The notes under the pieces are model-generated. The model saw only the letters and a list, made by a program, of their open reading frames with translations. It made no database searches and was not told where the DNA came from. A program made the position numbers and the translations under genes. DNA of 60,445 nt, counting the filler, from Hausera hauseri (Eukaryota), in the NCBI GenBank assembly GCA_046269625.1. It is 12 parts of 12 records of this genome, joined end to end, with 100 filler letters (N's around TTAATTAATTAA, not from the genome) between each part and the next. Parts side by side here need not be neighbours in the genome. Positions count along the whole stretch, not along the records: positions 26,189 to 30,542 come from JBJURY010620775.1; 11 more parts are not named here. The stretch is one strand, 5' to 3'. Shown in pieces: positions 9,928-47,138 of the stretch (positions are counted from its first letter, which is position 1; each line of letters starts with the position of its first letter).

Positions 9928-9938
9928 TTTCGAATGAA

Positions 9939-12958: not shown

Positions 12959-13125
12959 AATGGAAATTAAGATTTAAATTTAATTCAAAGTTAATTCAAT
13001 AAACAGACAACAGAAAATAAGGAAACTCAAAAAGGAAGGAAAATAAGGCTCATTTCCCGAATGAAGGAGGTAAATGTTATATAAAACTTTCATAATAAAT
13101 ATCTTATGGATAATTCAATCTTACA
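12943..13125 (+). mobile_element. Short 3' LTR (~183 bp) with PPT aaaggaggggga
   Basis: TGTGAG...CTTACA termini, internal AATAAA, PPT at 12931-12942. Confidence 0.75.
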
Positions 13126-13869
13126 ATTATCAAGTGATGTTGAGGTCGGCATGGTAGAAACGCCATCTACTAACAGAGAGAAAATGGTGTCTACGTAAAG
13201 GAGGAAAAGTCAAAAGGAGGAGAACGTCGACCAGGAAGAAAGAAAGGTAATAAAAAGGTAATAGAAGAGGTGGAATCCAGAGAAACTTCTGTAGAAAAAA
13301 GTGATGTAGGACAAAAGAAAAGAGGACGAAAGAAAAGTAAGTCTGGCAAGTCAAGGTCAGAGGAAAGAGAGAAAGAAACTCAACCCATAAAAATTTTTGA
13401 CGAAACCGTCATCAAACAAGTAATACGTGACATAGACATAGACTTAGATACTGAAGATGATCTTATCCAATCAGTAATCGCTATAGATCCTGAAAATATA
13501 ATAGATGTAAACCAAGCAACAAGCACCATATTACAATTAATAGATAGTAAGGTATCTACATTTACGATAAACAAAATTTTATTTCAGTTCTTAATACTGG
13601 CCCATGACACTAGTCCAATAAGAAATAGCACGGACAATATTAGCTAAAGTAGCTGAAGATAAAAGATGAAGAAATGAAACAGTAAGAATAACGTTAAAAG
13701 AAGGAAATCAAGATATGAGAGTTATTCGAATAAATGAGACAGATGGTAAACTAACGCTGAGAGAAAAGATTAAAGAGTTAGAACCTTTCTACGAAGGAAA
13801 GGTATACGGATTAAATTTTTACGGCAGAACGTTGTATGGGTACGATAAACTACTAAGAATTTGATGTAG
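13126..13869 (+). pseudogene. Fragment of post-gag ORF (basic tract, helical domain, ubiquitin-like domain) of the family at 44900..47140; target of the gypsy insertion
   Basis: KIFDETVI..AHDTSP.R..VRITLKEGNQDMRVIRINETD..LREKIKELEPFY..YGLNFYGRTL closely matches 45190..45700 (-). Confidence 0.8.
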
Positions 13870-14075
13870 TTTTTTTTGCATCCAAAACCATTTTTATCTC
13901 CTCCTCCATTCCAAATGCTCCGACTTTAATTAACGTTTCTTCTAGCTTTCGTAATTTGCTTGTTCATTCTTTGGGTAATTGACTTTTCCCATTATTGTGA
14001 TAGTAGATCCGGTATCTATCAGGGCCACTAATGGATATCCACCTACTTCGATATATATTTCTGGTCTTAGTGCAG
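13870..14075 (-). pseudogene. Retropepsin (aspartic protease) N-half
   Basis: Manual translation RPEIYIEVGGYPLVALIDTGSTITIMG (DTG at 14008-14016), then IKVGAFG flap-like segment; absent from the ORF track. Confidence 0.8.
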
Positions 14076-14229
14076 ACTTGAGTCCGTTTTTATTACTCAT
14101 TGAGAACGCATGCTCACGATTATATTGTGAAAAATTTTCTTCGTAATCCTTTTTAGGCGTAGTACTTAGTATGTGGGGTACATTCCTCCATGCTTCACAT
14201 AGTGAAGGGCTAATGGACTTATCAACATT

Positions 14230-16142
14230 TATTCGTTATATACTTGTCCGTTATATTCGTCTGTAGGATCTAACTGAGGTAAGTCAATAATTAGTTTTCG
14301 TTTATACTTCTGCCTTCGTGATTTTAACGAAAATCGTCTACGTTTTGTCAAATATCTACCACTTCTAAATTTGATATTCGAATCATTTTTATCATTGACA
14401 TTTTTGACGTTTAGGGTACTATATGGCAAATACTTTTCAATATGGTTATTTCTTTTTCTTGGTATTTGCCTTTTCCATCTTACGTCATGATTTGCTAAAC
14501 AACAACTGGCAACTGCCGGTATTACCTCTATAAGGATTTTCCATGAGCATCCTACTGCTGCATGTATTCCATAAGCCTTACCAAGTGCAGTGAATATCGT
14601 CCGTAGGGCACTGATGATGAAATATATTGCTAAAATGTCCTAAATCAGCCTGAACAAAATACAGGAATTTTCCACACATCCTTTCCATAACGTTTCTTGT
14701 GACTTTCTTCAAATAGTTTGTTCCCGTTAAATTTTCCCATTGTGGTGAACCTTCTCCGTCCCACATCACTATTTTTGTTAACTCCATTATTACTTGTTGT
14801 CTGTGCTGGGGAAACAATAACATTCGCCGATAGTCCTCTAAATTCTATTGTGTATAAATTCCGCCTTGTGATATGCCGGTAAGGGGTTCAAATTTCTGAT
14901 TTCTCTGCAAATTAATCAGACTTAACGCCTCTGGTTTCGTTACCGGTTTATTTTTTGGCATTCTAATCCATTTATTGTCCAGTTTAAACATTGGCGACAT
15001 ACTGAAAGTACAATTATCCAACTGAGTCGGTCTTGTATTAGCGTCTAGTAATATTCTTGTTACCGGCATTACGTATCAAGGTTCCATATTATAGATTACC
15101 GGTAGTTATGAAGTACATTCCTCCGTTGGCCTAATTGCTACTTCTACCTTTCTACACTCAATAGTTATTAGTAATTCGCCCATTACTCTTCCAATTACCC
15201 CATCGCCGAATGGCATCACCGGAGCTACCATTTCGGGATTAGTTATTATTAATGCCATCTTATTCCGTATTATTTCATAATTCAGTTTACATTCGTTTAG
15301 TATAATTTCCATATATAGACTTCCTATCTTTTTTCTGACGTAATTAATTAGAAAGTCAATTTTATTATCAAAGTTTTGCGTTAACTTTATATTCTTCTTG
15401 TCTATTTTTGTTTTAGCTTGGGCTGCTTCTTTAGACAAAAGGTATACACTTTTATAATTGGATTTGAACATTTCTTCGTTATTCTTATTAATCGTTTCGA
15501 TGATTTTAAATCGCATCATTTCTTCGGGATTTTCCGAGTATACCACATGGCTACTTACGTCATTTTTACCTCTCTAACTCCTTCATTGTATGTTGTTGAT
15601 ACTTTTTCGGCCACCTTTTCTATCTTCTTATTAAATTTTCCTTCCTTTAATAACGTAAGATGACACCGATTCGAGGATAATTCTCAGGTCATTTTAGATT
15701 CTCCAGTATTGCATTCCGCGTTGTCGTATTCACATTCACTCACAGTTGTCATAATTTTAGTTTGAGTCAAATAACCCTTCATATTCTTTCAATTGAACTT
15801 GATAATTTTCGATGACAACTGTGCTTGGTGCAATGGTGCATCCAACATCATAATCCACTCCTTTACGTGTACTTTCCATTGTTTTATCTATTTTTCCTGC
15901 TCTAAAAATTCGTGTGTAATTTATTTTATTTCATATTGCTGGTATTTGTGCGTTTTGTATTGTTATGACTACAATCTTAAATGCATCTTGGCATTCTGCC
16001 CGTGATATTATTATCGGTTCAAAGGTGTTGTTGGTTCGATAATAGAAGAATTTCCAGAATAATATGCGCAATTAAATAGGTAAAAGGATTTCTTTACGTA
16101 ACATTCTCGGACTTTAACTTTTATAAATTCTGATTCCTGGAA
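14230..16142 (-). pseudogene. env: Chuvirus-like (class III-type) envelope glycoprotein, degenerate
   Basis: EC..FNCA..SSIIEPTTP; KIDFL..LY..NECKL..NKMAL..NPE..GRVMGE..IECRKVEVAIRPTEEC; PVTRIL..C..PMFKL..W; GGIYT; AYGIHAAVGCSWKIL membrane-proximal segment. Confidence 0.82.
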
Positions 16143-16458
16143 AGTAGTATAAAAATGCGGGTTCTGGATCACCCCCTGCCCCCCATGCAGCCAATCCGAA
16201 GCGTGCTTGATGCGCACACCCATACGGATGGATAGATTCGGTGACGTTTGTTTTAAAAAACACACCGTGCACGATGCACCATGCACTCCGGAAGCAGGAG
16301 AGGTGCACGAAAAAATGCGGATGTAAGATGGAAGTGTTGCACGGCCATGTGTAGCACACAGAAATGATGGGGGGCGGAAGGCGCATCGAATGGTGAAGGA
16401 CCGAAGTCGATGGGGTGTCGGGGGAAAGAAAGGGGAAGGGGCAAAAAAGTGATCCAGA
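16143..16458 (+). mobile_element. Polinton-type terminus (AGTAGT...), possibly a miniature non-autonomous element, inserted in the glycoprotein gene
   Basis: AGTAGTA..CTGGATCA..CCCCC resembles the reverse complement of the 7773 terminus; GC jump; contig ends in GTGATCCAGA, the inverted copy of TCTGGATCAC near 16163. Confidence 0.6.
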
Positions 16459-16876
16459 NNNNNNNNNNNNNNNNNNNNNNNNNNNNNNNNNNNNNNNNNN
16501 NNTTAATTAATTAANNNNNNNNNNNNNNNNNNNNNNNNNNNNNNNNNNNNNNNNNNNNCCCCCCCCCCCCCCAAACTTCCTAATAAAAATTTAAAAAAAA
16601 AATGTAAATCTGGATGTTACCTGTCATCGATCTCGTTATGTGCCCTTTTCTTCTTTCATGAACTTATCTTTTTAGAACGGAGTTAGTCCAGTTACTCATG
16701 AAACATAATTAAAAGGAGGCAAGCAACCAATATTTAAATCGTCTGATAATGTGAAGAAGTGATCAGTGTAAAACTAAGGCCCAGAACAAAGACATCAGAG
16801 AATGATTAAAGCCAACCTTCATCGCGTGACGGCATGATAAAGGATACTATGTTGAACAGTATGTAATACAAAAACA

Positions 16877-19480: not shown

Positions 19481-22400
19481 ATAAGAGATGCAATCGAAGC
19501 ACTCTAAAAGATTGAGGGAAGAAATATGTTGATTCTAACACTAAATCTTATGGCCAGAACTGTAACCATGAAATGGTTGAAACCGTGTCTAATGGTGGCA
19601 GTGAAAACGCTATAACAAATAGGCTGTACATCTCTTTACCGACTTGGCGCTGACGGTGTCGAAAAATGTCTAGTCTCAGCCGTGAGAGAAATCGAAATTT
19701 GTCAAAATCCCTCTAGAAGGGAAAATATTTTCGTTATTTCGCTATCTGCGCTATTTTTCAGCGAAATTCAAATATGTTCTGGAGCAATTTGTGTCTCAAA
19801 ATAATTATTTCAAACATTTCAGGCCAACTATAAAAATAGTTGATACAGGCAAAGTGGAAAGCAGGCAAGGACACATTTGCTAAACAGTACAGCACAGAAT
19901 GCAATATCGCAGAATCACAAGCAGTCCACGAGCGAGAAGTCTGCCAGGGATTAATTTACAATAAAGTAAAACTGAAGCAAATCAGATGCCATGTCAAAAC
20001 AGTATAAACAACAACATATTCATAACTAGCTCTGGGATGGCAGACAGAGTGTCGTAGGTATGGAGAGAGATTTAAATATCACCAGTGCACCAGAAGAATC
20101 AAAAGAGAGCTAATCAACAGTAGGATATCTGATCATCAAAAGTTTACCCCTTCGGACAAGTATTTCGGTCCTCGCTTCTTGATACTCTAGAGGATCATGA
20201 CGCCTAGGCGTCAATTTCCTGTTCATGTTATCGTACCTGTCTTTCCACCCAATATGGGCCAGTTGTATGTGTCTTTTGGTAATATGTTGAGAATCAAATT
20301 CGTCGAGCAAAACATGTCCATGACAGCATTCAAATCTACCCTCCGGGAGGGCTTATGTTGGATGCTAACAAGTTTCCATGTATCTCGAGACTATTGTTAC
20401 GGAGTCTGACCTTTCGACCGACATTTCCCGTTTCGTTTCCCTTGCTCGCCGTGCAAAATTACACATTTCGGACAGTTTTCTTCATAAATAGGGAACACTC
20501 GATTCCCAGGTCCACTCTTGCCTGCATTTACCGCCACGTCTACTCCGTTGAAAATATCTGGTTGTTGCAGTTTCGCCCGTGTGCTTACGTGTTATAACAA
20601 CTTGCCTCACATTTATGACACATTGGTTCCCGTCATTATCTGTGGTTTATCCGGACTCGATAATCATGGTAAAATTGACTGTGTTTGATGCCTGAACGAT
20701 CTTGAATGGCCGAAAGAGTTTGACACATCCCCTATGTGTGTCCTCGCTCGCCACGCCTGGTTTCTAACACCTGGCCGGTGGTAAAGGCCATTGATTCAGT
20801 TTGTCCCTGTAATTGGGAGGTTAGACTGAACTTGACCTCGCGGATTTTGACAAATAGTCTCCTTATCTTCACGTTCAGACGTCTGTTTTTTTCTTTCAAT
20901 TTCTTTCCCCGTATATTCATTATGTTCAATAAGAGTATTTTGCTGGCATGGCTTACTAGAGCGACGTGGCACAGTTGGTAAAATTACATTTGTAATAAAA
21001 CACTTGTGAAATATGAAGTTTCTTATTCTTGGACGCTGTTATGTCTTTATTTTTTTTTCTTTTCCTAATGTCTGGTCTGTAAAACAAAACAGGCAAAAGA
21101 AAGCAGCAAACTGTCTCAGGATAATGCAAGTGCAACATATGAAAAGGCACGAGAATAATTAGTAGCAGACACAGAGAAAAGTATTAGAAAGATCATCCAG
21201 GCTACAACAAAAATGACGCCTNNNNNNNNNNNNNNNNNNNNNNNNNNNNNNNNNNNNNNNNNNNNTTAATTAATTAANNNNNNNNNNNNNNNNNNNNNNN
21301 NNNNNNNNNNNNNNNNNNNNNTTAAAAGTCTCTTGATGAGATAATTTTGTGTCCTGGATTCAAATTAATGGAATAAAAGTTTCTGTCTTTTCCAAGGGTC
21401 TTGAGAGCCAAATTGATGGAGGAGGTATATCACTACAGGTGTGCACTTGTATGACAACCTCAGCTTGAACATTAAACCTTGATCTATGATATCACGTCTC
21501 AGATATGGATGCAAAGTGATAGATAAGACATTATTGATATTAGAGAAACATTACCGGTAAATGTGACTTCTGTGGCAAATGTGAGACTATAGAGCATACA
21601 GTACTTGGAAAAAAAAAAACATGGAAAAATATTAAACTGACTGACAGTCTCAATAAAATGAAAGTGAGGTTACATCCTATTGAACAATTACAGAGAAATA
21701 AAAAAAAATCATATAGATTTCAAAACAACACTCTCTGTTCTACAGCTTGTGAAGTCTCTAAGTGATTCATGAACTTTTCTACTTTAGGGTCATCTTTAGA
21801 ATGGAAATATTACAACCCACTTAATATTTTAAAAGATGCAACCTAGTAAAGGCATTGTAATAAATATAATATTAAAAAAGATCAGATAAACTGAAGAATG
21901 ACTGTTTAATATAAGATATATATTTACAAACAAATTAATGTCAGTAGAAATGACGACCACCAGGCCTTCTCTGGTCAGATACAACACAAAACAGGACGTT
22001 TAATATGCCTACCTTGTGGTCATAACAGATGTTTGCATGTCATTTCCTTTCAATTCTGCTCATCAAGTAGAAGTAGCTCTTCCGGAGACAAATATCGAGC
22101 ATTGTCCAAAGGTAGATCGAGATTGTACAAGTGGCTCCGGAGACCGTCAAATAAGTGGTATAAGCTAATGAGTTGTGTCGTCAAGTGATACATTGTATAA
22201 TCTTATGTGAGGAGAAGCACAAGTATTTATACTGCAATGTAGCTTGAACACACAATAGAAAATACGTAGCGAAATTATATATTTGTGATTAAATACGGTC
22301 AATCAACTTTTTCACTGCAATACAAAGCGAAGCAGAAAATACAAGTCCAATGAGGAAATTAATACGTTGCCATTTTCGTTTCTATTCATCCTCGATACGT

Positions 22401-22829
22401 TTTACGAAGAGAGATCGGAATATTAATTCAATATAATCTCGTCTGCTCATTTTCCTGGTTTATGTCAGCTCACATAGATACTTAACGTCAAATACATGTC
22501 CAGTCATTATTTCTTCTGTCAATTTCTGAATTTCACTCTCAGTGTAACCTTCCATATAAGTTGTAACATGTAATATGGCTGACATGTTTATACCTGCGTA
22601 AAAGAAATAAGTTAGTGTATATCAATTTATTATATAATTGTATTTAATGTTTTCAATTTAAAGTTAACATTTACTTTAATTTGTTTAAATTTAGAAATGT
22701 TCACAATATCCCATATACTGTGTCTCTCGCATACATGAGGTGGATCAGTGCCATCAACAGATGGCGAATTATTAGAAAATTGGCACGGACACTTGTGTGT
22801 ATCCAACGTGTGATGTTCTAACCCGCTGT

Positions 22830-25800
22830 CCGTACCCCGATTTTTATGAGATGCACAAGCATCATCTTGGACCGTTTACTCGGTCTAAGAAGATGATGAT
22901 TGTGCATTGCCCCACATACCCATGATAATGTAATAGTAGTAGAGTGCATGATGTTCATGGTTTCCATAGTGTAATGGAGCAGTACTATGGCGCCACAACG
23001 GTGCACGGTAAACGGGCCTACGTTTGTCCCGATTGTTCTGTACTTGATGAAGTCAACTATGACCAATTCTACAACATTCACAAGGACCACTTGAACCAGT
23101 TTCAGAGGTCTAAAAAGGAAATATTAATGTACGCAGCAAAAAGCAGCAACAGGAAACGTCAAGCATCAGCAGGCCTTGACGAATACTTTCAAAACAACAG
23201 AAGTCAGAAACAGCAGCAGCAGCAGGAACGTGAACCGCCCATTACTGTCAAGTACAACATGAACAGATCGTACGTGGACATGAAGGTAGACATGTCGGCG
23301 AAAATAGCAATGCAATTGAAGGATGTATCCGCTAATATGCCTAACCGGTTGGAATCAGAGGTGGCCAAATTCCAACAACACCTCTGCAAAGTGCAATATT
23401 ATGCAGATGCAGAATTTGAAAATCTGCAGGGTGGCAGGAAACAATGGTACCTGTCACATCGAGCCGTACCATATTCTGAGGATCTTATTGCCGATGTAGG
23501 CGAAAAGCTTGAAGAAAAAATCGCCACCTATACCGAAAAGGGCAGTGGCTGGCAAATTGTAAAGATGTCACTCTGGGCTTTATTCTGACCAAGACGACTG
23601 ACATGATTTATCTGTTCGGACGTTCATTCATACCGACACCTGCATCCTTGAAGCAGTCTCTGGCAGTAGTGAATGTACAAAATACTTAAGACGAATACTG
23701 CTTTATTTACAAAATTCTGGTTATATTGAAATATGATCAAGTGTCCAGACATCATGCAAATTGCCCAAAGCAGTACAGTAAGTATTTCTCAGAATTGGAC
23801 TAGGACGAGTGTTGTATGTCGACGAAACTCAAAACCATTCCGGTTTTTGAACGGCATAATCGTACACTGGCAATCAACGTGTTCCGGTTCAACACAATCG
23901 TACAATACCGGTGGGTGAGGAAATTTACAAGAATCCTTACGTGGACATAATTTACCGCAGTCAAAATTTAATTGGACGCCCAGTAAATTTGTTGCTGTTG
24001 GCGAATGAAGAAAAGTTTAATAACACGGCCGTGACCAATTTGGACAGATTGTTGAACATGCAGCATGACCAGTTCATCAAAAAGCGTATACAGTGCAAAT
24101 GGTGTCCCGTGTGTCTGCATGGATTCCGGTCAAATGAAACATGGGAAAAGCATGTGGCGCTGTGCAGGCAAACTTCGTCAGGAACCACAACGTATGTTAT
24201 ACCAGTCAAAAGGGAGTTGAGATTCAGTAACTGGTCAAAAATGGTCAGTCCTGAATATGTGGTGTATGCCGATATCGAAGCAATTCTACCGCGACACAAT
24301 GTATACGATCAAAAGCACGTTCCAATTGTTGTCGGTATGTTGCTAGTACCAATAAAAGCCGCCGGGCAATCTCATTATTACGTTTCCCATCGTTGAAACT
24401 GTGTACGTGATTTTCTGCAGCAGTTGGAAACCATAGTAGAAACGGAAATCGCGCCGTGGTATCGCAACAATTGAATAAGCCATTGATTTTGGCAGATGAA
24501 TATAAACCGTTGCTTTTCGTTGTCACCGATAAATGCTATCTGTGCCACAAAAATAATACCGTTTGATGCACAGGAACGGCTCATACCGGATCACGACCAA
24601 TTCATCGGCCGATACTTGAGAGCAGCATGCAATTCATGCAATTTAGCAAGATGAGTGCAACCATTCCTGCCGTTGATCTTTCATAATTTTTGAGGTTATG
24701 GCTGTCACTATATTCTGAAATTGGCCATTAATGGCTTTCCGCACTGGGAACACTCCATAATCTCAACGAAAATGGAGAAATACCTATTGCTGTCGGCACG
24801 CTAAACCAATTCCAGGTACGCTTCCTTGATTTATTGCAATTTATCAATGAATCATTGGCAAAACTAATAAATGCCTTGCCAGATGTGCCGATAGCACTGA
24901 CACAGTTCTCTGAACATATTGCACTCAGCAAAGGCATATTTCCATATGACTTTGCAACATTATATGAGCGACTCCAGACAGCATAGAAATTACCGTCGCG
25001 ATGGACATGTATTGCAGAAGATAAATATCGGAGAGCTCAAAAATCTTGGACAGAACTGGACTGTAGGAACATGTTGGATTACATTTTCCAGTATCTTAAA
25101 CTGAACGTGCACTTTTTAGCCGACGTGTTAGAAACATTTCGGACCAAAGCACTGGCGGAAGATAGGTTGGAGCCACTCAACGTTTATTCTATACCGGAAA
25201 TGAGTTGGGCGTCAGCTCTAATGTCACTGGATCGAGACATTTAGCTGCTGCAAGATCCGGAAATGTACAGAATGTTTGATGTTGGTATTCCTGGCGGCAT
25301 GACATTTGTCAACAAGCATCAGGTCAGTGCTACCTATATCACATCACTGCTGTATATTAATATTAATAACCTGTACGTCTGGGCGCTCTCGCAATCCTTG
25401 CCGTACGGTTTATTTGAATCGGTAGTCGACAGACAAGATCTGGACGACATAATGGTCAACCTACAACGAGCAGACATGGCAGGCTCAGTTGAATACCTGA
25501 TGGAGGTCGATCGCGAGATACCAGATGAGCTGACGACGTTTTAGACGATTTACCGGTCGCACCATTTAACCAATGTCCGCCAGACTCAAAAGTGAAGAAA
25601 CTGTTCATGACGTATAAACCGAAGCTGAATTACGTGGTCAATTGGCGTCTGCTACGGTTCTACATGCAGTTGGGTGTACGCGTCACACAGCTTCATCGTG
25701 CAATCTGATTTGCTCAGGCTCCAATATTCAAGGCGTACATAGATGGAAATTCTGATAAACGAGACGCAGCTTATGCAAAGTTCGAAAAGGGCTACTATAA

Positions 25801-26088
25801 TCTGAAAAACAATTTCCTGTACGGAAAAGCAGTGGAGAATCTGAAAAATCGGCTCAATGTGCGCCTATGTAACTCGGAAAAGAGGCTGATTACGTATACC
25901 AGAAAGGCACAGTTTCGGTGATTAATTCATATTGCCGATGGATTGGTTGCTGTGCTGTTGAACAGGGAAGAAGTCTTTTTGGACCGGCCAAGTTACATCG
26001 GACAAGTGGTATTGGACCTGAGCAAGTTGCGGATGTATGAGCTGCAGTATCGCGACTTGGCACGTTACCGGCAAATGTTCGACGGCTC
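22830..26088 (+). pseudogene. Polinton pPolB, degenerate, 3'-truncated by spacer; close relative of 56691..60445
   Basis: EKGSGW, WCPVCLHGF, VVYADIE, DHD..G..AACNSCN, GGMTFV..NNLY, LDLSKLRMYE. Confidence 0.93.
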
Positions 26089-26188
26089 NNNNNNNNNNNN
26101 NNNNNNNNNNNNNNNNNNNNNNNNNNNNNNNNTTAATTAATTAANNNNNNNNNNNNNNNNNNNNNNNNNNNNNNNNNNNNNNNNNNNN

Positions 26189-26277
26189 GGACTGCAATAG
26201 CTATGTCTACACGGCAGTGTAGTTTTGTCTTGCGTTATTTCCTCGAGGCAGATAGGACATTTTTCCGGTTCCATCAT
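26189..26277 (-). CDS. RING finger protein N-terminal part (cut by spacer)
   Basis: Manual translation MMEPEKCPICLEEITQDKTTLPCRHSYCS; absent from the ORF track. Confidence 0.8.
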
Positions 26278-26489
26278 ACTTTCACTTCTATTTGCGGTTC
26301 CATTTCCTTAAATGGTAACAATTTATTCCAAATATTTTCATATTTATTAATAATAATAATCATAATTCCCAATAAAACGTCTTCTTGTCGTATCATAATT
26401 GTTCACAATTTCTCGATTTTACCCATCAGCGCACATAGAAATGTAATACTAAATTTCACAAGGTACAATAATCAATTTAATTACACATT

Positions 26490-26735
26490 TTACAAATTCA
26501 ACCATCTATCAATCTCTTCTAAGTCATTCCCTGACAAGGAGCAAATAGGGCATACCAGAAAACAATTTGAGTCCATGATCATAATGCTTATGTTGACTTC
26601 CTCCCCGCAGTATGCGCACTCGAACTGATCTTCCCGATGCTTCATCTTTTCGACGAGATAACATAGCGGACATGAGTTTCTTCTTCCATTGTTAACTTCC
26701 GGAGATTCTTTGCATATAACGCATCCTAAAATCAA
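26490..26735 (-). CDS. Small Cys-rich protein with four CxxC pairs (putative double zinc ribbon)
   Basis: CVIC, CPLC, CAYC, CPIC; start codon uncertain. Confidence 0.55.
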   Translation of the reverse strand: MILGCVICKESPEVNNGRRNSCPLCYLVEKMKHREDQFECAYCGEEVNISIMIMDSNCFLVCPICSLSGNDLEEIDRWLNL

Positions 26736-26891
26736 TATTAATTCATTTAATTCTTCTATTTATTCTTTTCATGCTCCTATTGCTATTATAATCGGTTTAT
26801 TGTTTTTCATTGTTTATTATTAACTCTATCAGACTACCTATATTTCATTATCACATCTATATTTAAGGCCAACATTCAAAGTTTTATTTCG

Positions 26892-27194
26892 TTAAAGAGG
26901 CATATACACGATTCTGTTAGGTCCATACACATACAGATCGTGCTGATCTTCTGGCATTACTTCCTCGTCTTCTTCTTCTGTTCCACTTTCTTCTTCATCC
27001 GGGATTACCACTACGGTGGTTCCCCAGCACTGATAACATGTGGTTCTCCTTCTGCAAAAAGGACATGTTTGGTTTTTCATGAGCCATTTATCGGCGCAAC
27101 GAGTGCACATTATGTGAGTGCATCTCAGCAAAGCATATTTTCTCCCGAGGGGTCCATAGCATATGTTGCAAGGTGTTGTTCCTGAAATTGCCAA
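26892..27194 (-). CDS. C3HC4 RING finger protein with acidic tail (putative E3 ligase)
   Basis: CNIC..LRCTHIMCTRCADKW..TCPFCR; no in-frame ATG, preceded by a tttag acceptor-like sequence. Confidence 0.85.
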   Translation of the reverse strand: MAISGTTPCNICYGPLGRKYALLRCTHIMCTRCADKWLMKNQTCPFCRRRTTCYQCWGTTVVVIPDEEESGTEEEDEEVMPEDQHDLYVYGPNRIVYMPL

Positions 27195-27278
27195 AACTAA
27201 AATTCACTATGATGCTAAATATATTTTACAATAGATACTTTATTCCTTAAGTCCAAATCCTTATTACCATTATGTGCT

Positions 27279-27295
27279 CCTCACTCGGGGCACCA
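27279..27295 (-). promoter_or_regulatory. Primer-binding site (elongator tRNA-Met-like) next to a putative LTR end (..TAACA at 27303)
   Basis: TGGTGCCCCGAGTGAGG, complementary to a CCTCACTCGGGGCACCA tRNA 3' end. Confidence 0.7.
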
Positions 27296-30200
27296 GTTTA
27301 TATGTTAGGAGTAGGGGTTATACACCATGCAAGCATATAACCTTTATAACACTCCAACATATAAATGATTTGATATTTCATCTATCTCTTTCGTGAGTTC
27401 TTTAATTCTTATCTGTTTAACCATTCTTGATTAGCTAAAACCTTTCCTATTGTTTTAATGATGTTAATAGAATGTTTACGTTTTAATCAACAGATATTAT
27501 CTATGTCTATGTTTTATCCAACGTTTGATTGTTTCGTTAAATTCACCAAACTCCATAGGAAATTGTATAAATGTATATATTATCCATTAGGAGGATAATA
27601 ATAATATGTCTCGACTCTACGGTTTTAATGGACTTATCTATTTGGTTGACTTCTAGTTGTTCTATTAATCTCATTTGGATACTTCATTTGGATGGCTATA
27701 CTCCTCATTATCAGAACAATCAGGATACTATATTAAATAGTTGGCCCACCAGGATGTTTAACCATTTTTGGTATACTAACTAGAATTGTATTAAATGTTT
27801 TTACCATCATATCAGTCCTCATCATGAATGGTACAATTCCATGAAAATGTACTCAAGGTTCATCGGACAAGGTGAAGATGCTCTATCATTATAACAAACT
27901 CTTGAGTTCGATTTATTTGATGGGATATTACTCCAGTAATCTCGCTTGTCTGATCCTATCCTGCTAAAATCGGTTGTTCGAACAATTAATCACATCCTAA
28001 ATCGCAATAGTAATTTGGAACACAATCTATCCATCACAGGGTTCCTCACAATTAGCATTTATCTCGTTGATTACTTAGTTTATAGATATGTTTAGATCAA
28101 CACTACCCTCAGAAAGTCTGTCACAAATTCGATATTATCCTATGATGTTAATTAAAGATATCTTTAACCACACATTCCATTGTTTAATTTAACTCAATCT
28201 GACCGTCAGTCATTTACATTTCTTCTCTCATAAGTCCTAATCCTTATTAAATTCTATGACTGTAGTTCTATTTCGTCCAACCGTTGTTATTATTTAGTAT
28301 TCTTTTTACTATTCCAATAATCTAGGGGAAACCCACATACTCAACAAGATATTACCTACAAGGTTCATAAGTTATTCGGCATTTGGTGAATTCATTCGAA
28401 TCTATCAAATTCATTATAGAATGGCTCAGAGTAATATATCTATTATTCCTTAACAGTGTATTAATAACATGTTGTAATCATAGCAGACCTAGTGAGTTTA
28501 AATATTTATATAATCTACAATTGTCTAATAATTTCATTCGGGTAGTTATGACCTTCCTTCAGTAGTTCCAATACTCGGGGTACTACATTAAATGACTGTC
28601 TTGTTAGAAATAATTTGGGCAATGTCTGGAATTAATACTGATCATCTTCAGTCGTTCTACAATATTGATCACTTTCCGTCGTCCTACAAATGATCCGATC
28701 TTATGAAATTATGTCCAATGTTCCTTAAATGAGGCGAAGGTACCTTATCATCATAATAGACCCTGGGAGTTCTATTTTCGTATAATAATATTCTAATAAT
28801 TCTGTTTGTATGGTTTTATTCTACTAAAGTCAATTGTTAGAATAATCAAGATGTCATACCAGATCACCAGATTACTGTAATAATCATAATCACATCCTAA
28901 AAGGTAATTGGGAATTAGTACTAATCATTTTACTCCCTGTATCATTAAGATCTTGTACTATTTATTCATTACATCCGAGTTAACGTTCTAGACACCCTCT
29001 CAATTCAAAATGCAATCCATTCATTACTAAATCCCTTATAATCGGCACCTGCTTCATTGGTTACCTAGTATCAAATACGTACTGATTACTCTTAGGTTGG
29101 GCTATACTTCTGGCGGGCTTATCACAAATGGGATACGATTCTATGATGTTAATCGAGAGTGTCTTTAATTGTTCCATCTACTGTATGTTTCAACCATCAA
29201 CCATCTATATTTCTTCCCTTTTGTATCGTTTCATATCTTAACGGAGCTTATAGTAATCTTACAGGTTGGGTCACACCTTCTCATGATTCATTAATTTTCA
29301 TATATTTTAATCCACCTTTCATTACCCAAATATTATTTCTCTTCTTTTGTGTTTATCCGAATCCTCAATATAAATAGGATAAAATCAGGTTATCAAAGTC
29401 AAGTATACAATATGACCCGACGATGAAAAAATATAATTATTTGTGGCTTTTAAGGAAATGATACAAGACGACCGTTCGCAGTGACTTAGAAAATGATATA
29501 AAATAATTATTCGCCATAATTTAAAAATAAAACAATTGTTCTCGATTGTTTACGAAATAAAATAATTATTTATAATAATTTAAGAAACAAAATTAGAATT
29601 TCTTTACTGAAAATTCTCGAGACAATTTGTCTTCCGCTCGAAGCGACATCGGATTCTCTATCCATACAACAGACTGGGACCCGATATCAGTTGGAGTGAC
29701 GTCGTTAATTCAATACACGCTATATCCTTCAAGTTTCCCATCTGTCAACTAATTGTCACTCCCGTGTAGCACTTCTCCCAAATGCATGAGCTCGTCACAG
29801 GACACACTGGTTCGAACGGTTAATCAGTATCTGATTCTGTATCCATCCGGATATCTTCATCGTCATTCCTGTGTCGTTACGTAGTGATACGACGTACTGC
29901 CATACCAATTATTCAGGTCACAACTGACTAGATTAATTCTGTTAGCCGAGTCGTTTGTCAGGCAATATTCACATAAATGTTTTATACATCATCCGGGATA
30001 TGTTCGTAATTAACCCGCCTTCCTTTAACTCACTAAGATAGGACGTTATCATACATAATCAACAATTCCCTCATCAGATTTATATACCAAAATATTTATT
30101 TAAAATAAAATTATACAAGGAAACAAAAAACAGTTGACAAGTACTAGACAATCAAATAATTACCATTGTTGTATTGAGAAGTCGTAGATTCTGCTACATC

Positions 30201-30875
30201 TCTTTCGGCCATCTTTTTATTTCGTGAGATTATGATACAAATTAACAAAATATATATTTCAGTCGGGAACTTCGGTACAGAATATCAACTGGAATTACTA
30301 CTTTCTCGGAACGTTCTTTTGGTATTATAAACTTAGAGTACTATCTGAACTTATAATAATTCTTAACCTTACAATAGATAAGACAACCTTCCAAAGGTTT
30401 CGACTATACTGTCCTTTCAAATTCTTAATTCAACAAAATTTTTCGTAGAAATTTGTGTGTGTTGATAACGTTAACCTTAATCCTTTTATAGCAATTTTCA
30501 TTTATTACTATTCGATTTAGGAAATTGAATTTCCTGTTTTAANNNNNNNNNNNNNNNNNNNNNNNNNNNNNNNNNNNNNNNNNNNNTTAATTAATTAANN
30601 NNNNNNNNNNNNNNNNNNNNNNNNNNNNNNNNNNNNNNNNNNGGTTTCAAACTATTTTCTAATTTATCTATGCAATCTTCTAACATATCGCTGTAGCTCT
30701 TAAGCATATGTTTGTTCTGTTGTGTTGATTCAAGACTGACAATAATGGAAGGTATATCAGTGATTTCATTTTCCAAAACTTCAGTGGTAATTAATTCTGA
30801 TTTTTTGTCCTGATCCATGAGCTCGTCATCGATTAATTCACCACGTTTCTTTTTTCCTGCTTCCCATGGTATGTT

Positions 30876-33480
30876 TTAGTCTTTTCGTATTTCATCGGTT
30901 CTTGTCCAGAACGTTCTGATGAAATTAGTCCTTACTTTTTTCTTTTCGTCACGTATTACACCAACGCACGTCCATCCAAGTGGGGTTAATCTGGCTACAG
31001 GCTCGTTTATTTTTCCTGCTATTTCCTTTATAGACCTATGCAAGTGCATGTAGTTCGCACCAATTATCCCATCAAGCGATTTCGGCGATTTTTGAGCGGC
31101 GAACTTTATTTCTCTCAAATGTGGCCATTTGCTTTTCTCGACCTTCCAATTCACAGCCATTATTTTCTCAGTTGGATCATGGAGGACCAACGCTTCAAAT
31201 GGGATATTAACCTTCCCGTTTTTACTTCGTAACATCAGTTTTACCCTTTCCATTTTCGATTTAGTTGTCTTCCCACCTACTACCATAACAGACACATTCT
31301 CCTGAGTACTAACTAATCTTAATTGTTGTGCTACAGAACGCTTTATGAAGAATTCTCTACTCGCGTCATCTAACAACATACACACCTTTACTCTTCGTTC
31401 TCCACTTTCTAACCATACATCCACAGTACGCAGTGCTATTTTATTTCCTTTCGGAGCCTTTTCTGATCGCCAGGTCACGTAAGAGCTAACTTGCGCCTCT
31501 AATACATCACCTTCGCATTTATCCTTTTCTTTCCTTAATTCTCCATTACCTTGCTTGGTGTAAAATATTCTTTCTTGTTTTTTGGATGTATTTTTCTTAG
31601 ACAGTAAATCATAAACATAACGACATTTTCCTCCGTATTTGCAATTCCCTTTCACATAGTACTTACAAACTTGCACTTTACTATTTCCCGCATTAACATG
31701 TAGATACTTACATTTATTTCCAAATTTGCAATTTCCGTTTTTCTCAAATTCCCAACGTATTTGATTTTCGTTTTTCTTCATCGATTTAATACTACTCCTT
31801 TTTTACGTTTCGTTAATTGATATCTCATTTCTGTCGACATCTTTGTTCACATAGAAACTTCCTTGCGGTTTTCTTTGATACTCATGCCTTTTAGAAGATA
31901 CATGATCTTTATTATGAACAGGGAACCGTTTTTCAATTGTCAATTCATTCTTATCGTATGTCTGATCAGGCTTGTAGTCCCTTCTTGGGTTAAAAGTATT
32001 TATACCTCTGACTCTTTCAATTTTATTCCTTCGAACACTCGCGTCCAATTCAACCCATACCTTTAGTTCTTGAACTGTTCGACTCAACTTCTTTTCAGCA
32101 ACGTGTCGGGTAATTTTTCCATTAGGCTTTGGTACAACAGTCCTCCATCTAATTTTTTTTTCCTCCCCAGATTTTGTAGTCTCACTGTTATGCCATCTAA
32201 CAAAGCAACAAATCGGCCTAGGCCCGTGATGTCTTCTTCCTTGATTGGTTTAAAACGCATCACTTCAGTCATAAAGGCAGCATAACACCGTTGTTCTCCC
32301 CCATAATAAGAATCAAGCTTTCCCATTGCGGCCTTATAGCCTTCTTCAGATAGGTCGAAGTTCTCAATTAATCTCTTCGGTTCTCAATACAAGCATTGAT
32401 TTAACTGCAATTGTTTGTAGATGTCAGACATTGACGTCTTGTGAACGCAGGTGTCAAATGTTCTCTTCCATTTATCATACTCTGTGACTATACCGCCAAA
32501 CGTTGGAAGTTCTAACTTCTGCAATTTCGGCAGTATGACCTTTTCCTTCATACCACTATCTGCGCCTCTTGTTGTATTAATTTCCGATTTGCTTTCCCTT
32601 AGGCTTCTTTCATAGATAACTGCGTTGATCTTTTTATTCTTCTCATCTAATTTTTCTATTTCATTCTGTAGTAATGTTACATTTTCTTTTCTTTTTAATT
32701 TCCTGGCTGCGGTTGTCAATACACACAGTTCTTCTTGGACACTCGAAAAGATCTTCTTATAACTTTGATGGAATACGTTGTAATCATGTTCGTTCAAATT
32801 TACGTCCATCAATCTTCTTCGAATCAACGCCAATTCATTTATGGATCTTCGTCGCTCGGCAATACATTCCTCAAGTTCGTCCAATGTTATTTCGCTTCCT
32901 CCCCTTAACTGGAACGTTAAGTGAATTGTTGCGCCGTGTTGTAGGCTTTTCACTGTTTCATCGGTCTGTAGCGGTTTTCCAGCATGTAATAGACTGAACT
33001 CCTCATTTATCCTCAAGTTTTTCTTTATAATCCCAATTAGATCGCAATATGACTGAGATTCAGCTAAATCTCCGATGAAACTACGTCCACCACAACGTAC
33101 AATTGCTTGTCTTCTTATTTCTCCAACTCTAGTCATGTTATCGCCTTTTTCACCTTTTAAACTTGCATTGGCAGATTTCCCAACATCTTCCTTTGTCCAG
33201 CTAATTCTTCTTCTTCAATGTCGCCTCTAGGTTCGATATATTTTTTGACCCACTTGACCATCAACTGGTTCACTATTATGTCCTTTTCCCCCTTCCGGAC
33301 CATTCTTTTCAATTTCACCTTTATCTCCTTTAATTCTTTTTTCTCCTGGTCGTCCTGGATAACAGAAAGTCTCAATAGAAAACCGTTGTCTATTCTCTAT
33401 TTGTTTAGAGGCATAGACACTCGATATATCTTCCAAGTTTTCATTGCCTTAGGCGCAAGATTTCACGAATCTTCAATTTA
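30876..33480 (-). pseudogene. gag: BEL/Pao gag-protease with ubiquitin-like domain (32897..33109) and two CCCH zinc fingers (~31610..31760)
   Basis: LPKLQKLELPTFGG..W..F..VH..K...L.QCL (DUF1759-type), MEKLP, MLLDDAS (decayed DSG), WPHL..I..IIGANY..PVARLTPLGWTCVG (Pao protease). Confidence 0.88.
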
Positions 33481-39450: not shown

Positions 39451-39915
39451 TGAAGTATGGGGAAAGGAGGACACCGCGTCAAGCTTATTTTCCTATCTCG
39501 AGACCCCCCAGNNNNNNNNNNNNNNNNNNNNNNNNNNNNNNNNNNNNNNNNNNNNTTAATTAATTAANNNNNNNNNNNNNNNNNNNNNNNNNNNNNNNNN
39601 NNNNNNNNNNNGCAGAAATTAGTAAAGTTGTACAATTCTTTGTATATGAAAATTTTCGTACACATATAATGTAAAGCACTTATGGAATAAGTTTCGCAAT
39701 ATTCATTAAATTACTTTTATACTGAAACAACTTATCATTTTTTACTTGTTTCTGGATGGTTGTAAAAATTATTTAAATATTTGAACTGATAGTAGCACTC
39801 GTGACTTCTTGGCACCAAACTACATAAACGTGCAAAATTAATATTTTCCAAATTTATTTAATATACAAATATAATTGACAGTGTATCACAAGAATGAAGA
39901 TATCACAAATGCCCC

Positions 39916-41364
39916 TTAACCGAACGTCCGAATTATATTAGCAATACTGCTGTATGTTCCCAGTCCAATAGAACACACACCCAACGTAAAAATTGCTCCA
40001 TTTACCACCAATTCATATTTCCAAAATCGTCCACACTTCGTCGACCATAAAACGACCGAATAACAAATCACCGGAAAAATGTACATCAAAGAAGTCTCCG
40101 TCGTTGCACCGATTAACGACACGAACAAATCCAACTGAGGAACGGCCACCGATAACAAAGTCGTAATTGCGACGACCGCAACTCGAACGCCAATATTCGA
40201 TAGTTTTTTGACCTTTGCCGTTTTAATATGTTCAAAAAATTTTTTCCAAACTGCGCTGAAAAATACGAAACCTTGGAGAGCATAACTGATGAAAATCGAG
40301 AGGATGTAGAGTGGTTTGCATAAAAAGTAATACCAAGGACTAATAGGGATGGATAAGATAATCGAACTGCTGATTGAATCACCGAATTTCCAGTATCCGG
40401 CGAATCCGACAAGTAGATATATACACAGAACGGTTGACGTTCCAATGTTCAGAACACCACACGGTTTCAAGATGTTGTTCTTATTTTTCATATGACTCTC
40501 TAGCGGGTTTATTAACATAATGGATTCGAAGGCAAATGTTACGATGCCCAGAAACATTGGCATAGCATCAGTTAGTCTGAACATTGGTAGCTGACAAATC
40601 GGAAGCGGATCTTGAAAGCAATAAACAAGCGCTATTAAAATACTTATAGCCATCAATACGTTTGCTACTTGAGAGAAGTAAGCAAGTCCTCTGAGAGTCT
40701 TGATGAACAGTAAAGGTAAAAATATGATGAACAAACCAAGTAAATAAAGTCGAACGGATATGGAATCCTTCTGTATGGAAGCGTAATAATCAACAATAGA
40801 TTTCGTATTTTCAACAACAAATATTTGATATGATGACATACTGCCTATTTGAACACTAAACAAAAACCAATACAATGCATGGTGCAGCCAATAAAATTTC
40901 CTAAACTTCATTTCTGCACATTCAAAGCACAGTTTGACTGTTTTTTCATAGTCCAAATTGTCGATGGGTGTCTTATAAACAGATCGTATATGCATCACTA
41001 CTCGAAGCAGTAGCCTCATACAATATATGGAAACAATCGATAGAAATAAAATCGACAGAATTCCCAGAACCCATCCAGCATATTTCAGTGCTGAAGGCAG
41101 AGCCAAAATACCAGTACCCGCACTGGCTTTGATTAAATTCATTATTGCCTGAAAGTCAGTGAGTTCGTGATAATCGTTCGTTTCCACAGTGGGTTCAATA
41201 GACGGCAGTTTGCTCCACTGAAATTCGGATTTGTCTCGGTAGACATAACCTTTTAATTTGGTAGAATTATCTGGATTAGGCACTGGTACTTCATTTTCGG
41301 TTTGGTGGAGTAATAGTGGTAAACATTCGGAGCTGTAGTGTTTGTTGGGTGTATCTAAACTCAT
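39916..41364 (-). CDS. Proton-coupled amino acid transporter (SLC36/PAT, Aa_trans family), intronless
   Basis: Intact 482 aa; NLIKASAGTGILALP.A..AG, FAFES..PLESHM..P.GVLN, GFAGYWKFG, SYALQ, VPQLDLFVSLIGA; about 11 hydrophobic segments. Confidence 0.95.
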   Translation of the reverse strand: MSLDTPNKHYSSECLPLLLHQTENEVPVPNPDNSTKLKGYVYRDKSEFQWSKLPSIEPTVETNDYHELTDFQAIMNLIKASAGTGILALPSALKYAGWVLGILSILFLSIVSIYCMRLLLRVVMHIRSVYKTPIDNLDYEKTVKLCFECAEMKFRKFYWLHHALYWFLFSVQIGSMSSYQIFVVENTKSIVDYYASIQKDSISVRLYLLGLFIIFLPLLFIKTLRGLAYFSQVANVLMAISILIALVYCFQDPLPICQLPMFRLTDAMPMFLGIVTFAFESIMLINPLESHMKNKNNILKPCGVLNIGTSTVLCIYLLVGFAGYWKFGDSISSSIILSIPISPWYYFLCKPLYILSIFISYALQGFVFFSAVWKKFFEHIKTAKVKKLSNIGVRVAVVAITTLLSVAVPQLDLFVSLIGATTETSLMYIFPVICYSVVLWSTKCGRFWKYELVVNGAIFTLGVCSIGLGTYSSIANIIRTFG

Positions 41365-42016
41365 TTAATGAATACTGAACTTTATCAATATTACTTTATT
41401 TACTCAGCGTATGTAAGTGCCATTACAGATAATCTGAGGTCGATTAAGTGACATCTGACATTTCAGAGTTATAGTAAATGCAAATATTTTATGTATAATG
41501 AGGGGGGGGGTTAAATGAATAAGTTAATTAAATGAAATTAAAATTTATTTACGGTTTTTTTGTTTCCGGCCATCTTCAATTTTTCCATAACGCACAGAAG
41601 AATTTTTGGATAAAACCAAATTCTCGCCCNNNNNNNNNNCGCCCATTTTCGACCAATAATATTTGAAATATTGTGTTCTCTTGATGCTCTATCCAATCAA
41701 AACGGTGTTCGTTAATGTGTGAAGCTACACAACTGATAATCAAAAGAGGGCGAGTAAAGAAGTGCGTAGTGACGTAACCTTTAAAAACACTGATTACACA
41801 ATATTAGTCCTACTTGCAAAAATCATTTACTATATTAAATTTTGTACCCCAGTTAGCAGTAATGTTACAAAGAGCTGAATTTTATTGTCTACTTGCACCA
41901 AGAACTTTTTCATGAGTCATTGATATAATACGTCATTTTGATTGGATAAAGGAATTTCTTGTGAATTAAAGAAAGAAAGTGTTAGGTTTAGTCTGTATTT
42001 CGAAAAATAAAAATCG

Positions 42017-43474
42017 TCAGAAAAATGTTTTGATGATCGTAGCAAGGCTGCTATACGTACCAAATGAAGCAGCGAAAATCCCCAATGAAAATATCCCTCC
42101 ATTAAGAACCAATTGAAATTTCCAAAATCGTCCAGATCTCGTCGAATATACAATGACCGAATGGCAAATCACTGGAAACAGAAACATCAAACTCATTTCG
42201 GCTACTGCTCCGAATAACGAAGCAAACAGATCCAACTGTGGCACAGCCACTGATAATACTGTTGTAATGACTACTATACCAATTCGAATACAGATATCCG
42301 AAATGAATTTTGCCCGGCCACTTTTAGCCTTTACCACAACTCGTTCCCAAATCATTTCAAACAACACAAACCCTTGTAAAGGGTAACTAATGAGAATGGA
42401 AATGATGAACAAAGGCTTGCACATGAAGTAATACCATGGGGTTACCGGTATCATCACCATAATGGAACTGCTTATTTCATCCCCAAATTTCCAGTAACTA
42501 GCGAATGAGATGAGCAAATAAAAACCGAGCACGATTGACGCACCAATATTGATAACACCACACGGTTTTAGTAAATTCTCCCGTTTCTTAATGTGACATT
42601 CAATTGGATTGATCAGTACAATGGACTGGAATGCAAACATTATGATACCGAATGATGCTGGAGTGGTAACTGTGAATTTGGCCAGCGGCAGTTTATTGAT
42701 CGGAATGGGATCATGAAAACAATAAACGAGTGCTATGGTAATACTGATCATCGTCAAGACATTTGCCCCCTCAGAAAAATACGCAATACAACGAAGAGTT
42801 CGGATGAACATCAGCGGCAAAAACAAGACAAACAAACCAAGCAAATACAGTCGAATTGATACCGAATTTTCCCCCATCGGAATGTAATAATCAACAATAG
42901 ATTTCGTATTTTCAGCTACGAAAATTTGATACGAAGATAACGTTCCTATCTGGGCCAAAAACAGACACAAATACAGTGCATGGTGCATCCAGCAAAATTT
43001 TCGAAATCGTTCGTCGGCAGTTTCGAAACATAACTTTACAGTCTTTTCGTAGTCTAAATTGTTGATATATGTTGGACAAACTGATCGTAAATGGATGACG
43101 ACTCGCAGAAGTAACCGAACACAATAAACAGAAATGGTCAAAATGAATACTATTAAGAAAATCCCCAGAACCAAACCGGAATATTTGAGAACCGAAGGCA
43201 AAGCTAAAATTCCCGTATCTGCACTGGCTTTGATCAGATTCATCAAAGCCTGGAAACTCGTTAGTTCTTTGACTTCGTACTGTTCATCCATAGCATCGAT
43301 GGATATGGACCTCCTTTCGTAAAATGCAAATTGTGTTGCGTAAGGCGAATAAGAAGAATAATCAAATCTTATAGTACTTTTGTACCTCCTTACCGGTCGC
43401 TCATTTTCTATTTGGTTTTGCAGTAGTGGCAGGATTTCTAAGCTGCGACATTTTCTGTGGTTTGAAAGATTCAT
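42017..43474 (-). CDS. Proton-coupled amino acid transporter (SLC36/PAT), tandem paralogue, intronless
   Basis: Intact ORF collinear with 39916..41364; first ATG (MNLSNH) at 43474. Confidence 0.93.
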   Translation of the reverse strand: MNLSNHRKCRSLEILPLLQNQIENERPVRRYKSTIRFDYSSYSPYATQFAFYERRSISIDAMDEQYEVKELTSFQALMNLIKASADTGILALPSVLKYSGLVLGIFLIVFILTISVYCVRLLLRVVIHLRSVCPTYINNLDYEKTVKLCFETADERFRKFCWMHHALYLCLFLAQIGTLSSYQIFVAENTKSIVDYYIPMGENSVSIRLYLLGLFVLFLPLMFIRTLRCIAYFSEGANVLTMISITIALVYCFHDPIPINKLPLAKFTVTTPASFGIIMFAFQSIVLINPIECHIKKRENLLKPCGVINIGASIVLGFYLLISFASYWKFGDEISSSIMVMIPVTPWYYFMCKPLFIISILISYPLQGFVLFEMIWERVVVKAKSGRAKFISDICIRIGIVVITTVLSVAVPQLDLFASLFGAVAEMSLMFLFPVICHSVIVYSTRSGRFWKFQLVLNGGIFSLGIFAASFGTYSSLATIIKTFF

Positions 43475-44899
43475 TAGACGACAGTTGAACTTTATCAGCA
43501 CACTTCATTAACGCAGTTTATGTAAATATGATTAATCCACTGTTCAATTATTACGCACGTGGCCTTCAATTTGATGACGATAAAATGTTTGTTAGATAAT
43601 AAAGTAGATTCACTGTTTGGTGTATAGTTGGGTAATTTGAGCATGAATTAAAAACGAAGGCAATGAACAAGCTTACTATTTTGATTCCATATTATAGATA
43701 TGAATTTTTCATTCGTTCATNNNNNNNNNNNNNNNNNNNNNNNNNNNNNNNNNNNNNNNNNNNNTTAATTAATTAANNNNNNNNNNNNNNNNNNNNNNNN
43801 NNNNNNNNNNNNNNNNNNNNAGGCTAGAGAAAGTGGAAAGCCCTTAATATTTCCTCAAGTACCATGTGACACTGATTCATCATTATATGTCCTTAAGTAC
43901 ACTGTCAAAACGGTCGATGTTCATAACATCTTGTGGTGTATCATAGTACAGCAAGTGCTCTACACTTACCTCGATCTGCAACCAGTCCTTGTATAGTGCC
44001 CCAGCTATGCTACATGTTAGTCATTTCTCACGGTTAGTCATGTCTCTCTTGAATGTTTCTGGGTCAGATAATAGACTTCTATTTACCCCAGAAGACTAGT
44101 TAGATGAGCTCTATCACTGCTAGGATAGTGTGTGCTTGCGACACTATACAATTACACTCAGAGATATGTAGATGAAACCCTTTTTTAATTGTCTCAATCA
44201 ATATTTATTAACTTATCCCACTGCATGCTGTTTAATGTTAACTTGTCTGACAGTTTCAATTATCACTTCCATCTACTGGACCGCTAGCTCTTTTGCCATC
44301 TGAGCAGTATGACTAGGATGGTCTTCATCAACAATTATTGAACACCTTTCAGGGAATTCTTGGGACAGCTGTCACTTCTTTACATGACAAAAAAAAACTT
44401 GTTAACAGAAACAAGAAGCATGCTCTTTTTCAGAAAATATCTCTGTGGACAGAAACCAGACAACAGAACACAGCTCTTCTAAACTCCGTGTGCATGGCAA
44501 CCATTTTAAGATGGAACATAATATCAAGTTGAATTGTAATGTCGGTTAATACTTAGAATCTTCTCGCTGATGTTTACAGGTATCCCACATCAGTATTTCG
44601 TCTAACCGCTGCCTTGCTTTCATGGTTTTTACAAGACTATAACGGCAAATAGATAAAAGATAACGGTCTGTGTACACTGAAATCTTGACAAATTCCTGGA
44701 CTTTCATTATCTGGTACACATTACTATCCTCTCTCCGTGGGAATGTAGCAACAGAACAGAAGAGCTGCATGTCCTTTTTCTTTCATTTTAATAATTTTTC
44801 GAGCTTCTTTTTTATCATAGGCCAGTCGATATGGTCTTTTCTTTATTGGTTTATCTTGACCCTCTTAATTTAATGGTCGCTTTATTACATTCATCATTC

Positions 44900-46967: not shown

Positions 46968-47120
46968 TCCGTTTTCTTCTTCCTCACTTATATTATTTAT
47001 AAATTCCAATCAGAGTGCTAAATTATCTTTTGGGTCTACTTAGTATGGTGTCCCCTTCCTAGTCGTAATTTTGATAACTTAGTTACTTCTTCTTATCTAA
47101 AGGTCTTCTAGGATGAGTTA

Positions 47121-47138
47121 TCTCGGGTCATGGCACCA
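47121..47138 (-). promoter_or_regulatory. PBS (tRNA-His-like) adjacent to LTR end (CA at 47140)
   Basis: TGGTGCCATGACCCGAGA about 150 nt upstream of the gag ATG. Confidence 0.7.

Follow-up and report, generated by a model that had tools for sequence, protein, structure and literature searches.

A cassette of small RING and zinc-binding reading frames behind a tRNA-Met primer-binding site in Hausera hauseri

Planarians carry giant long terminal repeat (LTR) retroelements, among them the Burro/GYPSM1 elements, which exceed 30 kb and are credited in PMC6431247 with BIR, ankyrin, MATH, ubiquitin-like and BCL2 motifs. The same source places env between gag and protease in Burro, and describes a Burro-like element of Dugesia tigrina whose MATH domain lies on an accessory open reading frame (ORF) upstream. 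A RING and BIR region of Burro1 (B-IAP, Lee et al. 2026) is reported, according to PMC13465017, to protect planarian stem cells. Here we analyze a locus of Hausera hauseri (GenBank assembly GCA_046269625.1) at which a primer-binding site (PBS) resembling that for tRNA-Met is followed by small RING and zinc-binding ORFs. The locus lies on contig A (JBJURY010620775.1; positions 26189–30542, 4.35 kb, 33% GC), one of 12 unplaced contigs (4.1–7.2 kb each) joined by 11 identical 100-nt spacers into the window, the 60,445-nt stretch that we analyzed as a whole and whose numbering we use throughout. Read along its minus strand, contig A presents a long hairpin, the PBS, a first RING ORF (RING1), an ORF with four CxxC pairs (4xCxxC), half of a second RING (RING2) and then the contig end at 26189, 1.1 kb past the PBS, with the cassette at its minus-strand 3′ end. 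With moderate confidence, we read contig A as containing the beginning of a giant, Burro-like element of Ty3/gypsy type, with an accessory E3-ligase block placed 5′ of gag.

The primer-binding site and the DNA upstream of it

The PBS spans 18 nt (27278–27295, minus strand) and is complementary to the 3′ end of tRNA-Met, including the CCA. Read from 27295 to 27278, it is identical at 16 of 18 positions to the tRNA-Met PBS tabulated in PMC1084362, and at 17 of 18 to a variant given there. It is the sole site in the window at three or fewer mismatches, and shuffled sequences returned none (0/100); this test used one tRNA type, which makes the true chance tens of times larger, yet small. We take the tRNA in question to be the elongator type of tRNA-Met. 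The source of the PBS table, PMC1084362, does not say whether initiator or elongator is meant. ARAGORN predicts no tRNA gene in the whole window, and none of the four weak Rfam matches in contig A (E ≤ 5) is a tRNA. A retroposed tRNA fragment or pseudogene was therefore ruled out, as no tRNA body extends beyond the 3′ 18 nt.

A preliminary description of this DNA, made from the sequence alone, had proposed a tRNA-Met-like PBS followed closely by a complete C3HC4 RING ORF and a 4xCxxC ORF, all on one strand, and each of these is recovered here on the minus strand. That description had also set against itself the case of a tRNA fragment beside host genes, with no second LTR or copy family; the fragment is excluded, and no second LTR or copy is found in the window.

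A long hairpin (27292–27369, minus strand) adjoins the PBS on its 5′ side and is a candidate R/U5 stem. The 75 nt 5′ of the PBS fold at −26.1 kcal/mol (z −4.9), a stability matched by 0 of 200 shuffles, and among 1069 80-nt segments of contig A the hairpin is the most stable (z −5.8), with the next five non-overlapping segments reaching −2.4 at best. A structured U5 adjoining the PBS is typical of retroelements.

Farther upstream lies an A-rich, non-coding and diverged tandem duplication of about 1.9 kb (27364–29251, minus strand), seen by self-alignment of a unit at about 29251–28208 with one at 28257–27364. The two units are identical in 539 of 861 columns (63%), with 223 transitions and 99 transversions, and their alignment score of 955 compares with 581 for the best of 50 shuffles (nhmmer E 3.6e-18). 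Codon periodicity is absent in most blocks, the mismatches are scattered over codon positions, and a Pfam search of 27290–30542 in all six frames, with stops read as X, gives no match, so that a decayed pol or env 5′ of the PBS was rejected. The repeat homology ends at 27364, even if extension is allowed, and the hairpin begins there, 5 nt before its TG; an array of TRIM type, in which polypurine tract, LTR and PBS are repeated, was rejected since the duplication stops short of the hairpin and PBS. The duplication could represent U3 sequence within a long LTR; alternatively, it could be the target DNA of the insertion.

Because the PBS adjoins a stable hairpin, lacks a tRNA body and is preceded by this non-coding duplicated DNA, the 27303/27295 region reads as a genuine LTR–PBS junction. 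On these same grounds the LTR element of the preliminary description stands, with its LTR end, at the CA at 27303, kept as putative.

Some smaller features accompany this region on the minus strand. A 28-nt stretch right behind the PBS (27239–27266) matches the junction between the upstream repeat units (28219–28249) at 25 of 28 positions (shuffles 0/100). At 29590–30050 the GC content rises to 42% and stops are sparser than on either side, which may mark a decayed ORF or a promoter; an AT-rich tandem repeat of 29 nt follows at 29498–29570.

The RING and zinc-binding reading frames

The RING1 ORF (103 aa; 26892–27203, minus strand) begins 75 nt past the PBS and contains a complete C3HC4 RING (27170–27054), an additional CxxC and an acidic tail. 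In Pfam, 11 RING models match this ORF over the whole domain, five of them above their curated cut-offs; these five include zf-RING_5 (E 4.6e-10) as well as zf-C3HC4 (E 1.9e-7). A search of the PDB returns 32 of 177635 sequences at E ≤ 0.001, RING proteins throughout, with RNF4 the best (E 1e-8). All eight zinc ligands are present with RING-HC spacing, and alignments with RNF4 and ZNRF3 show conservation of the Ile that follows the first Cys, of the Trp in the helix, and of the Pro in the last CPxC together with the Arg next to it. These residues serve E2 binding and activation in RING domains. Among proteins of near length, the range that the search covered, none of seven candidate homologues of RING1 passed. 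Exact look-up of the ORFs gave 0/8 and PHROGs likewise 0/8, and two single-sequence AlphaFold models were unusable (predicted local distance difference test scores of 41 and 43).

The 4xCxxC ORF (89 aa; 26490–26759, minus strand) is a zinc-binding orphan. Its sole Pfam match is the Elf1 zinc ribbon at E 0.099, its best PDB match has E 0.31, and a word-indexed homologue search gave no candidate; against 1.84 billion representative sequences there were four matches at E ≤ 0.001, which we judged to be unrelated repeat or Cys-rich proteins. RING2 (26189–26277, minus strand) has its own ATG at 26277 and is cut at the contig end. The second RING that had been proposed is real as far as it goes (zf-C3HC4 E 8.9e-7), with its first half, comprising five zinc ligands, on the contig; the matches cover positions 1–23 of 40 in zf-C3HC4 and 2–26 of 44 in zf-RING_2. 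The gaps separating the cassette ORFs are AT-rich and measure 132 and 182 nt. A 40-aa, ATG-led ORF at 26274–26402 (minus strand), which matches no Pfam family, ends in a stop shared in part with the pair of start codons of RING2; this could couple translation, or may be chance. Beyond the contig end, the spacer at 26089–26188 is artificial and separates unrelated contigs, and the Polinton-type polymerase on its left is unlinked to the cassette.

RING1 has no in-frame ATG ahead of its first Cys, the first in-frame Met being at 27110, within the domain. The preliminary description had seen this, together with the preceding tttag, and it is correct on both counts; it had missed that in the 4xCxxC ORF, too, no ATG precedes the first Cys. 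Acceptor-like TTTYAG sites lie just ahead of the first Cys in each case, at 27197 and 27182 for RING1 and at 26726 for 4xCxxC, and all three are in phase 1. The minus strand of contig A holds seven such sites, of which three stand at the ORFs without ATG and the other four within 3247 nt upstream; RING2, which has an ATG, has none. The joint chance of this arrangement, calculated post hoc, is 0.002–0.024 from the background rate, depending on the span used, and about 0.04 (0.29 × 0.13) with the amino acids fixed.

The source of a start codon is harder to place. Upstream there are 11 phase-1 pairs of ATG and donor (10 donors), and none stands out; the nearest donor, at 27341, is weak and falls within the hairpin. 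An ATG-GT at 27267 was rejected as the ATG exon since it is out of phase. According to PMC12582326, flatworm spliced leaders terminate in AUG. Trans-splicing of such a leader would require phase 0, and was rejected as the source of the ATG since all three TTTYAG sites are in phase 1. A chain of exons from RING1 to 4xCxxC was also rejected, as none of the four strong donor-like sites in RING1 is in the needed phase. On the side of decay, the in-frame ATG of the 4xCxxC ORF at 26810 lies behind two stops, and neighboring elements are rich in stops. The probable route to expression of the two ORFs is splicing to an ATG exon farther upstream; the alternative is that this copy has decayed. The earlier hint of spliced expression keeps modest support from the same-phase acceptors, with no donor singled out.

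Readings of the locus

If contig A is indeed the start of a Burro-like element, its layout would be a long LTR, a structured U5, a tRNA-Met PBS and small accessory genes, with gag beyond the contig end. In such an element tRNA-Met would prime minus-strand synthesis at the PBS, and the RING proteins would be small E3 ubiquitin ligases, bringing in a charged E2 and tagging proteins of the host, either apoptosis factors or antiviral and silencing factors. The tagging may help cells that express the element to survive. The 4xCxxC protein could serve as a zinc-binding adaptor.

RING ORFs recur in the mobile DNA of this genome, because two other contigs carry RINGs that are related to each other. 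Contig B (48918–56071, read on the minus strand), a decayed Burro-like element, opens partway through a RING, whose latter half (55759–56071; zf-RING_2 positions 28–44 of 44, E 0.007) lies upstream of an LTR-end/PBS-like junction at 55122. This junction has no hairpin, and its PBS-like site presumably corresponds to tRNA-Arg. A gag-like region with one CCHC knuckle (E 3e-6) follows about 400 nt on, then a long insertion with a weak ubiquitin-like match (E 0.07) as its sole match, and then a fusion glycoprotein (E 2.5e-9). On contig C (4989–10955), a RING interrupted by a frameshift is a homologue of the one on contig B (33 bits; 88% identical over 60 nt).

The host of contig A is most likely a triclad flatworm, an assignment that stops short of the planarian family (Burro being an element of Dugesiidae/Geoplanidae) and that we infer from another contig of the window (39612–43720), whose intronless transporter has Schmidtea mediterranea slc36a-1 as its nearest named relative (49% identity, 466 bits). 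The runner-up, from an insect, scores 187 bits (two matches at E ≤ 1e-40 among 8000 scored). Two SLC36-type amino-acid transporters in fact stand in tandem there (39916–43504, minus strand), both intronless and about 70% identical in DNA.

Several observations weigh against a Burro-like element. The CA at 27303 sits 7 nt from the PBS, a distance that is usually 0–3 nt in LTR elements. Pfam detects no BIR, MATH, ankyrin or BCL2 domain in the three ORFs seen, and protein searches found no homologue of the RING1 or 4xCxxC ORF. No gag, pol, second LTR or target-site duplication is present on contig A, which covers 1.1 kb past the PBS, and by nhmmer (E ≤ 1) no part of it is similar to the other 11 contigs. 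Its RINGs score at most 11 bits against those of contigs B and C, below generic RINGs of the PDB, and there is therefore no family-specific link between them. On contig B, the stretch from the PBS-like site to gag is free of accessory ORFs. The host clade, finally, derives from a contig other than A.

The rival that survives best, which we nonetheless regard as rather unlikely, is a non-autonomous, LARD-like LTR element whose internal region holds only the RING and zinc-finger cargo and which is mobilized in trans by an autonomous relative. Here too the LTR–PBS junction would be real; no gag occurs in the 1.1 kb seen, and other LTR elements of the window reach gag sooner, as at the 400 nt or so of contig B. 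However, 1.1 kb is too little to exclude gag, as Burro-like elements have accessory ORFs upstream of it, and neither a closing polypurine tract with LTR nor a second copy is seen in the window. Because contig A stops where it does, neither a missing gag nor a non-autonomous element can be inferred. The preliminary description had offered both a non-autonomous element and one with accessory genes 5′ of gag, and it is the latter that fits published Burro.

We think it improbable that the element instead starts at 27359, with a 57-bp LTR inserted at TATA into an older 0.9-kb tandem repeat, and belongs to a RING-carrying family with short LTRs and no kinship to Burro. The proposal draws on the hairpin core (27359–27303, 57 bp), which runs from TG to CA between two TATA motifs and whose inverted ends match almost perfectly, and on the upstream repeat homology ending just before that TG. 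A repeat-rich U3 meeting a structured R/U5 would look identical, however, and the 7-nt spacer before the PBS lies within the stem. Each core end is found once in the window and no second copy of the 57-mer occurs there. A length of 57 bp is also below the usual sizes of LTRs, which counts against the proposal.

It is quite improbable, in our estimate, that contigs A and B belong together as successive parts of a single locus or family, in which an outer LTR with the tRNA-Met PBS drives the RING block, upstream of an inner, older LTR end and second PBS that lead to gag-env-pol. The idea arises because contig A breaks just past RING ligand 5 and contig B opens at ligand 6 (zf-RING_2 positions 2–26 and 28–44). 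The coincidence has a rough post-hoc chance of 6e-4, but breaks in assemblies tend to fall in repeats. Counted against it are the lack of any overlap between the two contig ends and of any closer RING kinship, the RING half of contig A being no closer to the contig C homologue of B than a generic RING is, and that a plain nested insertion gives the same layout. Were it true, the RING block would be expressed like the accessory genes of complex retroviruses, by alternative splicing from one short R/U5 ATG exon, and planarian giant retroelements would have grown by nesting, the inner promoter being kept and an outer E3-ligase module gained. Contig B as a direct source of gag for the PBS of contig A was rejected, as B has its own junction at 55122 and the RING half is upstream of it.

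Least probable, and in our view very unlikely, is that host RING and zinc-finger exons (or genes of another mobile element) lie by chance beside a relic LTR–PBS as the exons of one spliced gene, a proposal that would account for the AT-rich gaps and for the acceptor-like sites ahead of both ORFs without ATG, but that is opposed by the out-of-phase donors of RING1, by the stop that each ORF has of its own, by the lack of a host orthologue where the host transporter gave one at once, and by the need for an insertion truncated within 75 nt of the PBS.

The rest of the window consists mostly of decayed mobile elements (Polinton-type polymerase, BEL/Pao gag, gypsy gag and pol, and fusion-glycoprotein pieces). 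On the contig at 11056–16458, fusion-glycoprotein (env) pieces (PF24664, E 7e-18 and 0.024) are directly followed by an aspartyl protease (RVP, E 2e-4) at 13942–15573 on the minus strand, and this env-then-protease element (13942–16500) faces the RNase H and integrase of another gypsy element (11056–12960, plus strand). One gypsy family is present in two copies, at 43821–48817 (minus strand) and 13179–13869 (plus strand), which are 74% identical across 693 nt lying 3′ of gag. A BEL/Pao-type gag at 30876–33214 (minus strand; DUF1759, E 1e-8) carries a weak N-terminal ubiquitin-like match (E 0.005) and two CCCH fingers (E 7e-11), with protease following; if the weak ubiquitin-like match is sound, this places further cargo of both kinds, ubiquitin-like and zinc-finger, in another LTR superfamily. 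Four decayed pieces of Polinton-type DNA polymerase lie at 1–4888, 4989–6900, 21322–26088 and 56172–60445, two of them 77% identical over 3.3 kb. Located 3′ of such a polymerase, at 7749–10955 (plus strand), are a 305-aa orphan ORF, the frameshifted RING, a 159-aa ORF with a hydrophobic end and a 170-aa orphan ORF; these match no convincing family and are possibly another accessory block.

Comparison with described retroelements and RING proteins

A BIR-free set of E3-ligase and zinc-finger ORFs behind a PBS, if correctly read, would mean that flatworm retroelements repeatedly acquire and swap modules of the ubiquitin pathway, as complex viruses do. Ubiquitin-pathway cargo in the upstream ORFs of planarian giant LTR elements is already published, which limits the surprise. 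Our literature search, which lay outside Repbase, most subscription papers and the key Burro papers, found no description of LTR elements with such a RING cassette upstream of gag. RING1 is small and complete, and so is amenable to direct testing.

At the level of the protein, RING1 shares its ligand spacing and E2-facing residues with C3HC4 RING E3s such as RNF4, RNF141 and the RING domain of equine herpesvirus-1, all three among its PDB matches. The similarity to cellular and viral C3HC4 RING E3s is confined to the domain, at 38 bits at best, and no substrate-binding domain is recognized in RING1. B-IAP of Burro1, as described in PMC13465017, is alike in being a RING domain on a planarian retroelement, whereas the RINGs of contig A are short, separate ORFs with no BIR in the 1.1 kb seen.

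At the level of the element, Ogre and other large-LTR elements with an ORF before gag resemble the favored reading in combining a long LTR with additional internal ORFs; unlike the present case, they have plant hosts, and their extra ORFs (Ogre as described in PMC6431247) are of unknown function rather than RINGs. Closest in description are Burro1–4/GYPSM1 of S. mediterranea and the D. tigrina element, which, according to the same source, have triclad hosts, accessory ORFs ahead of the gag polyprotein, and cargo linked to ubiquitination and apoptosis. Pieces with the Burro order, env before protease, also occur in the window, on contigs other than A. In contrast to Burro, contig A shows no gag-env-pol, and its cargo consists of stand-alone RINGs and an orphan 4xCxxC ORF with no match to BIR, MATH, ankyrin or BCL2; the likeness is one of description. 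By this analogy the cassette may work as the Burro accessory region does, its cargo apparently new and the kind of system already known.

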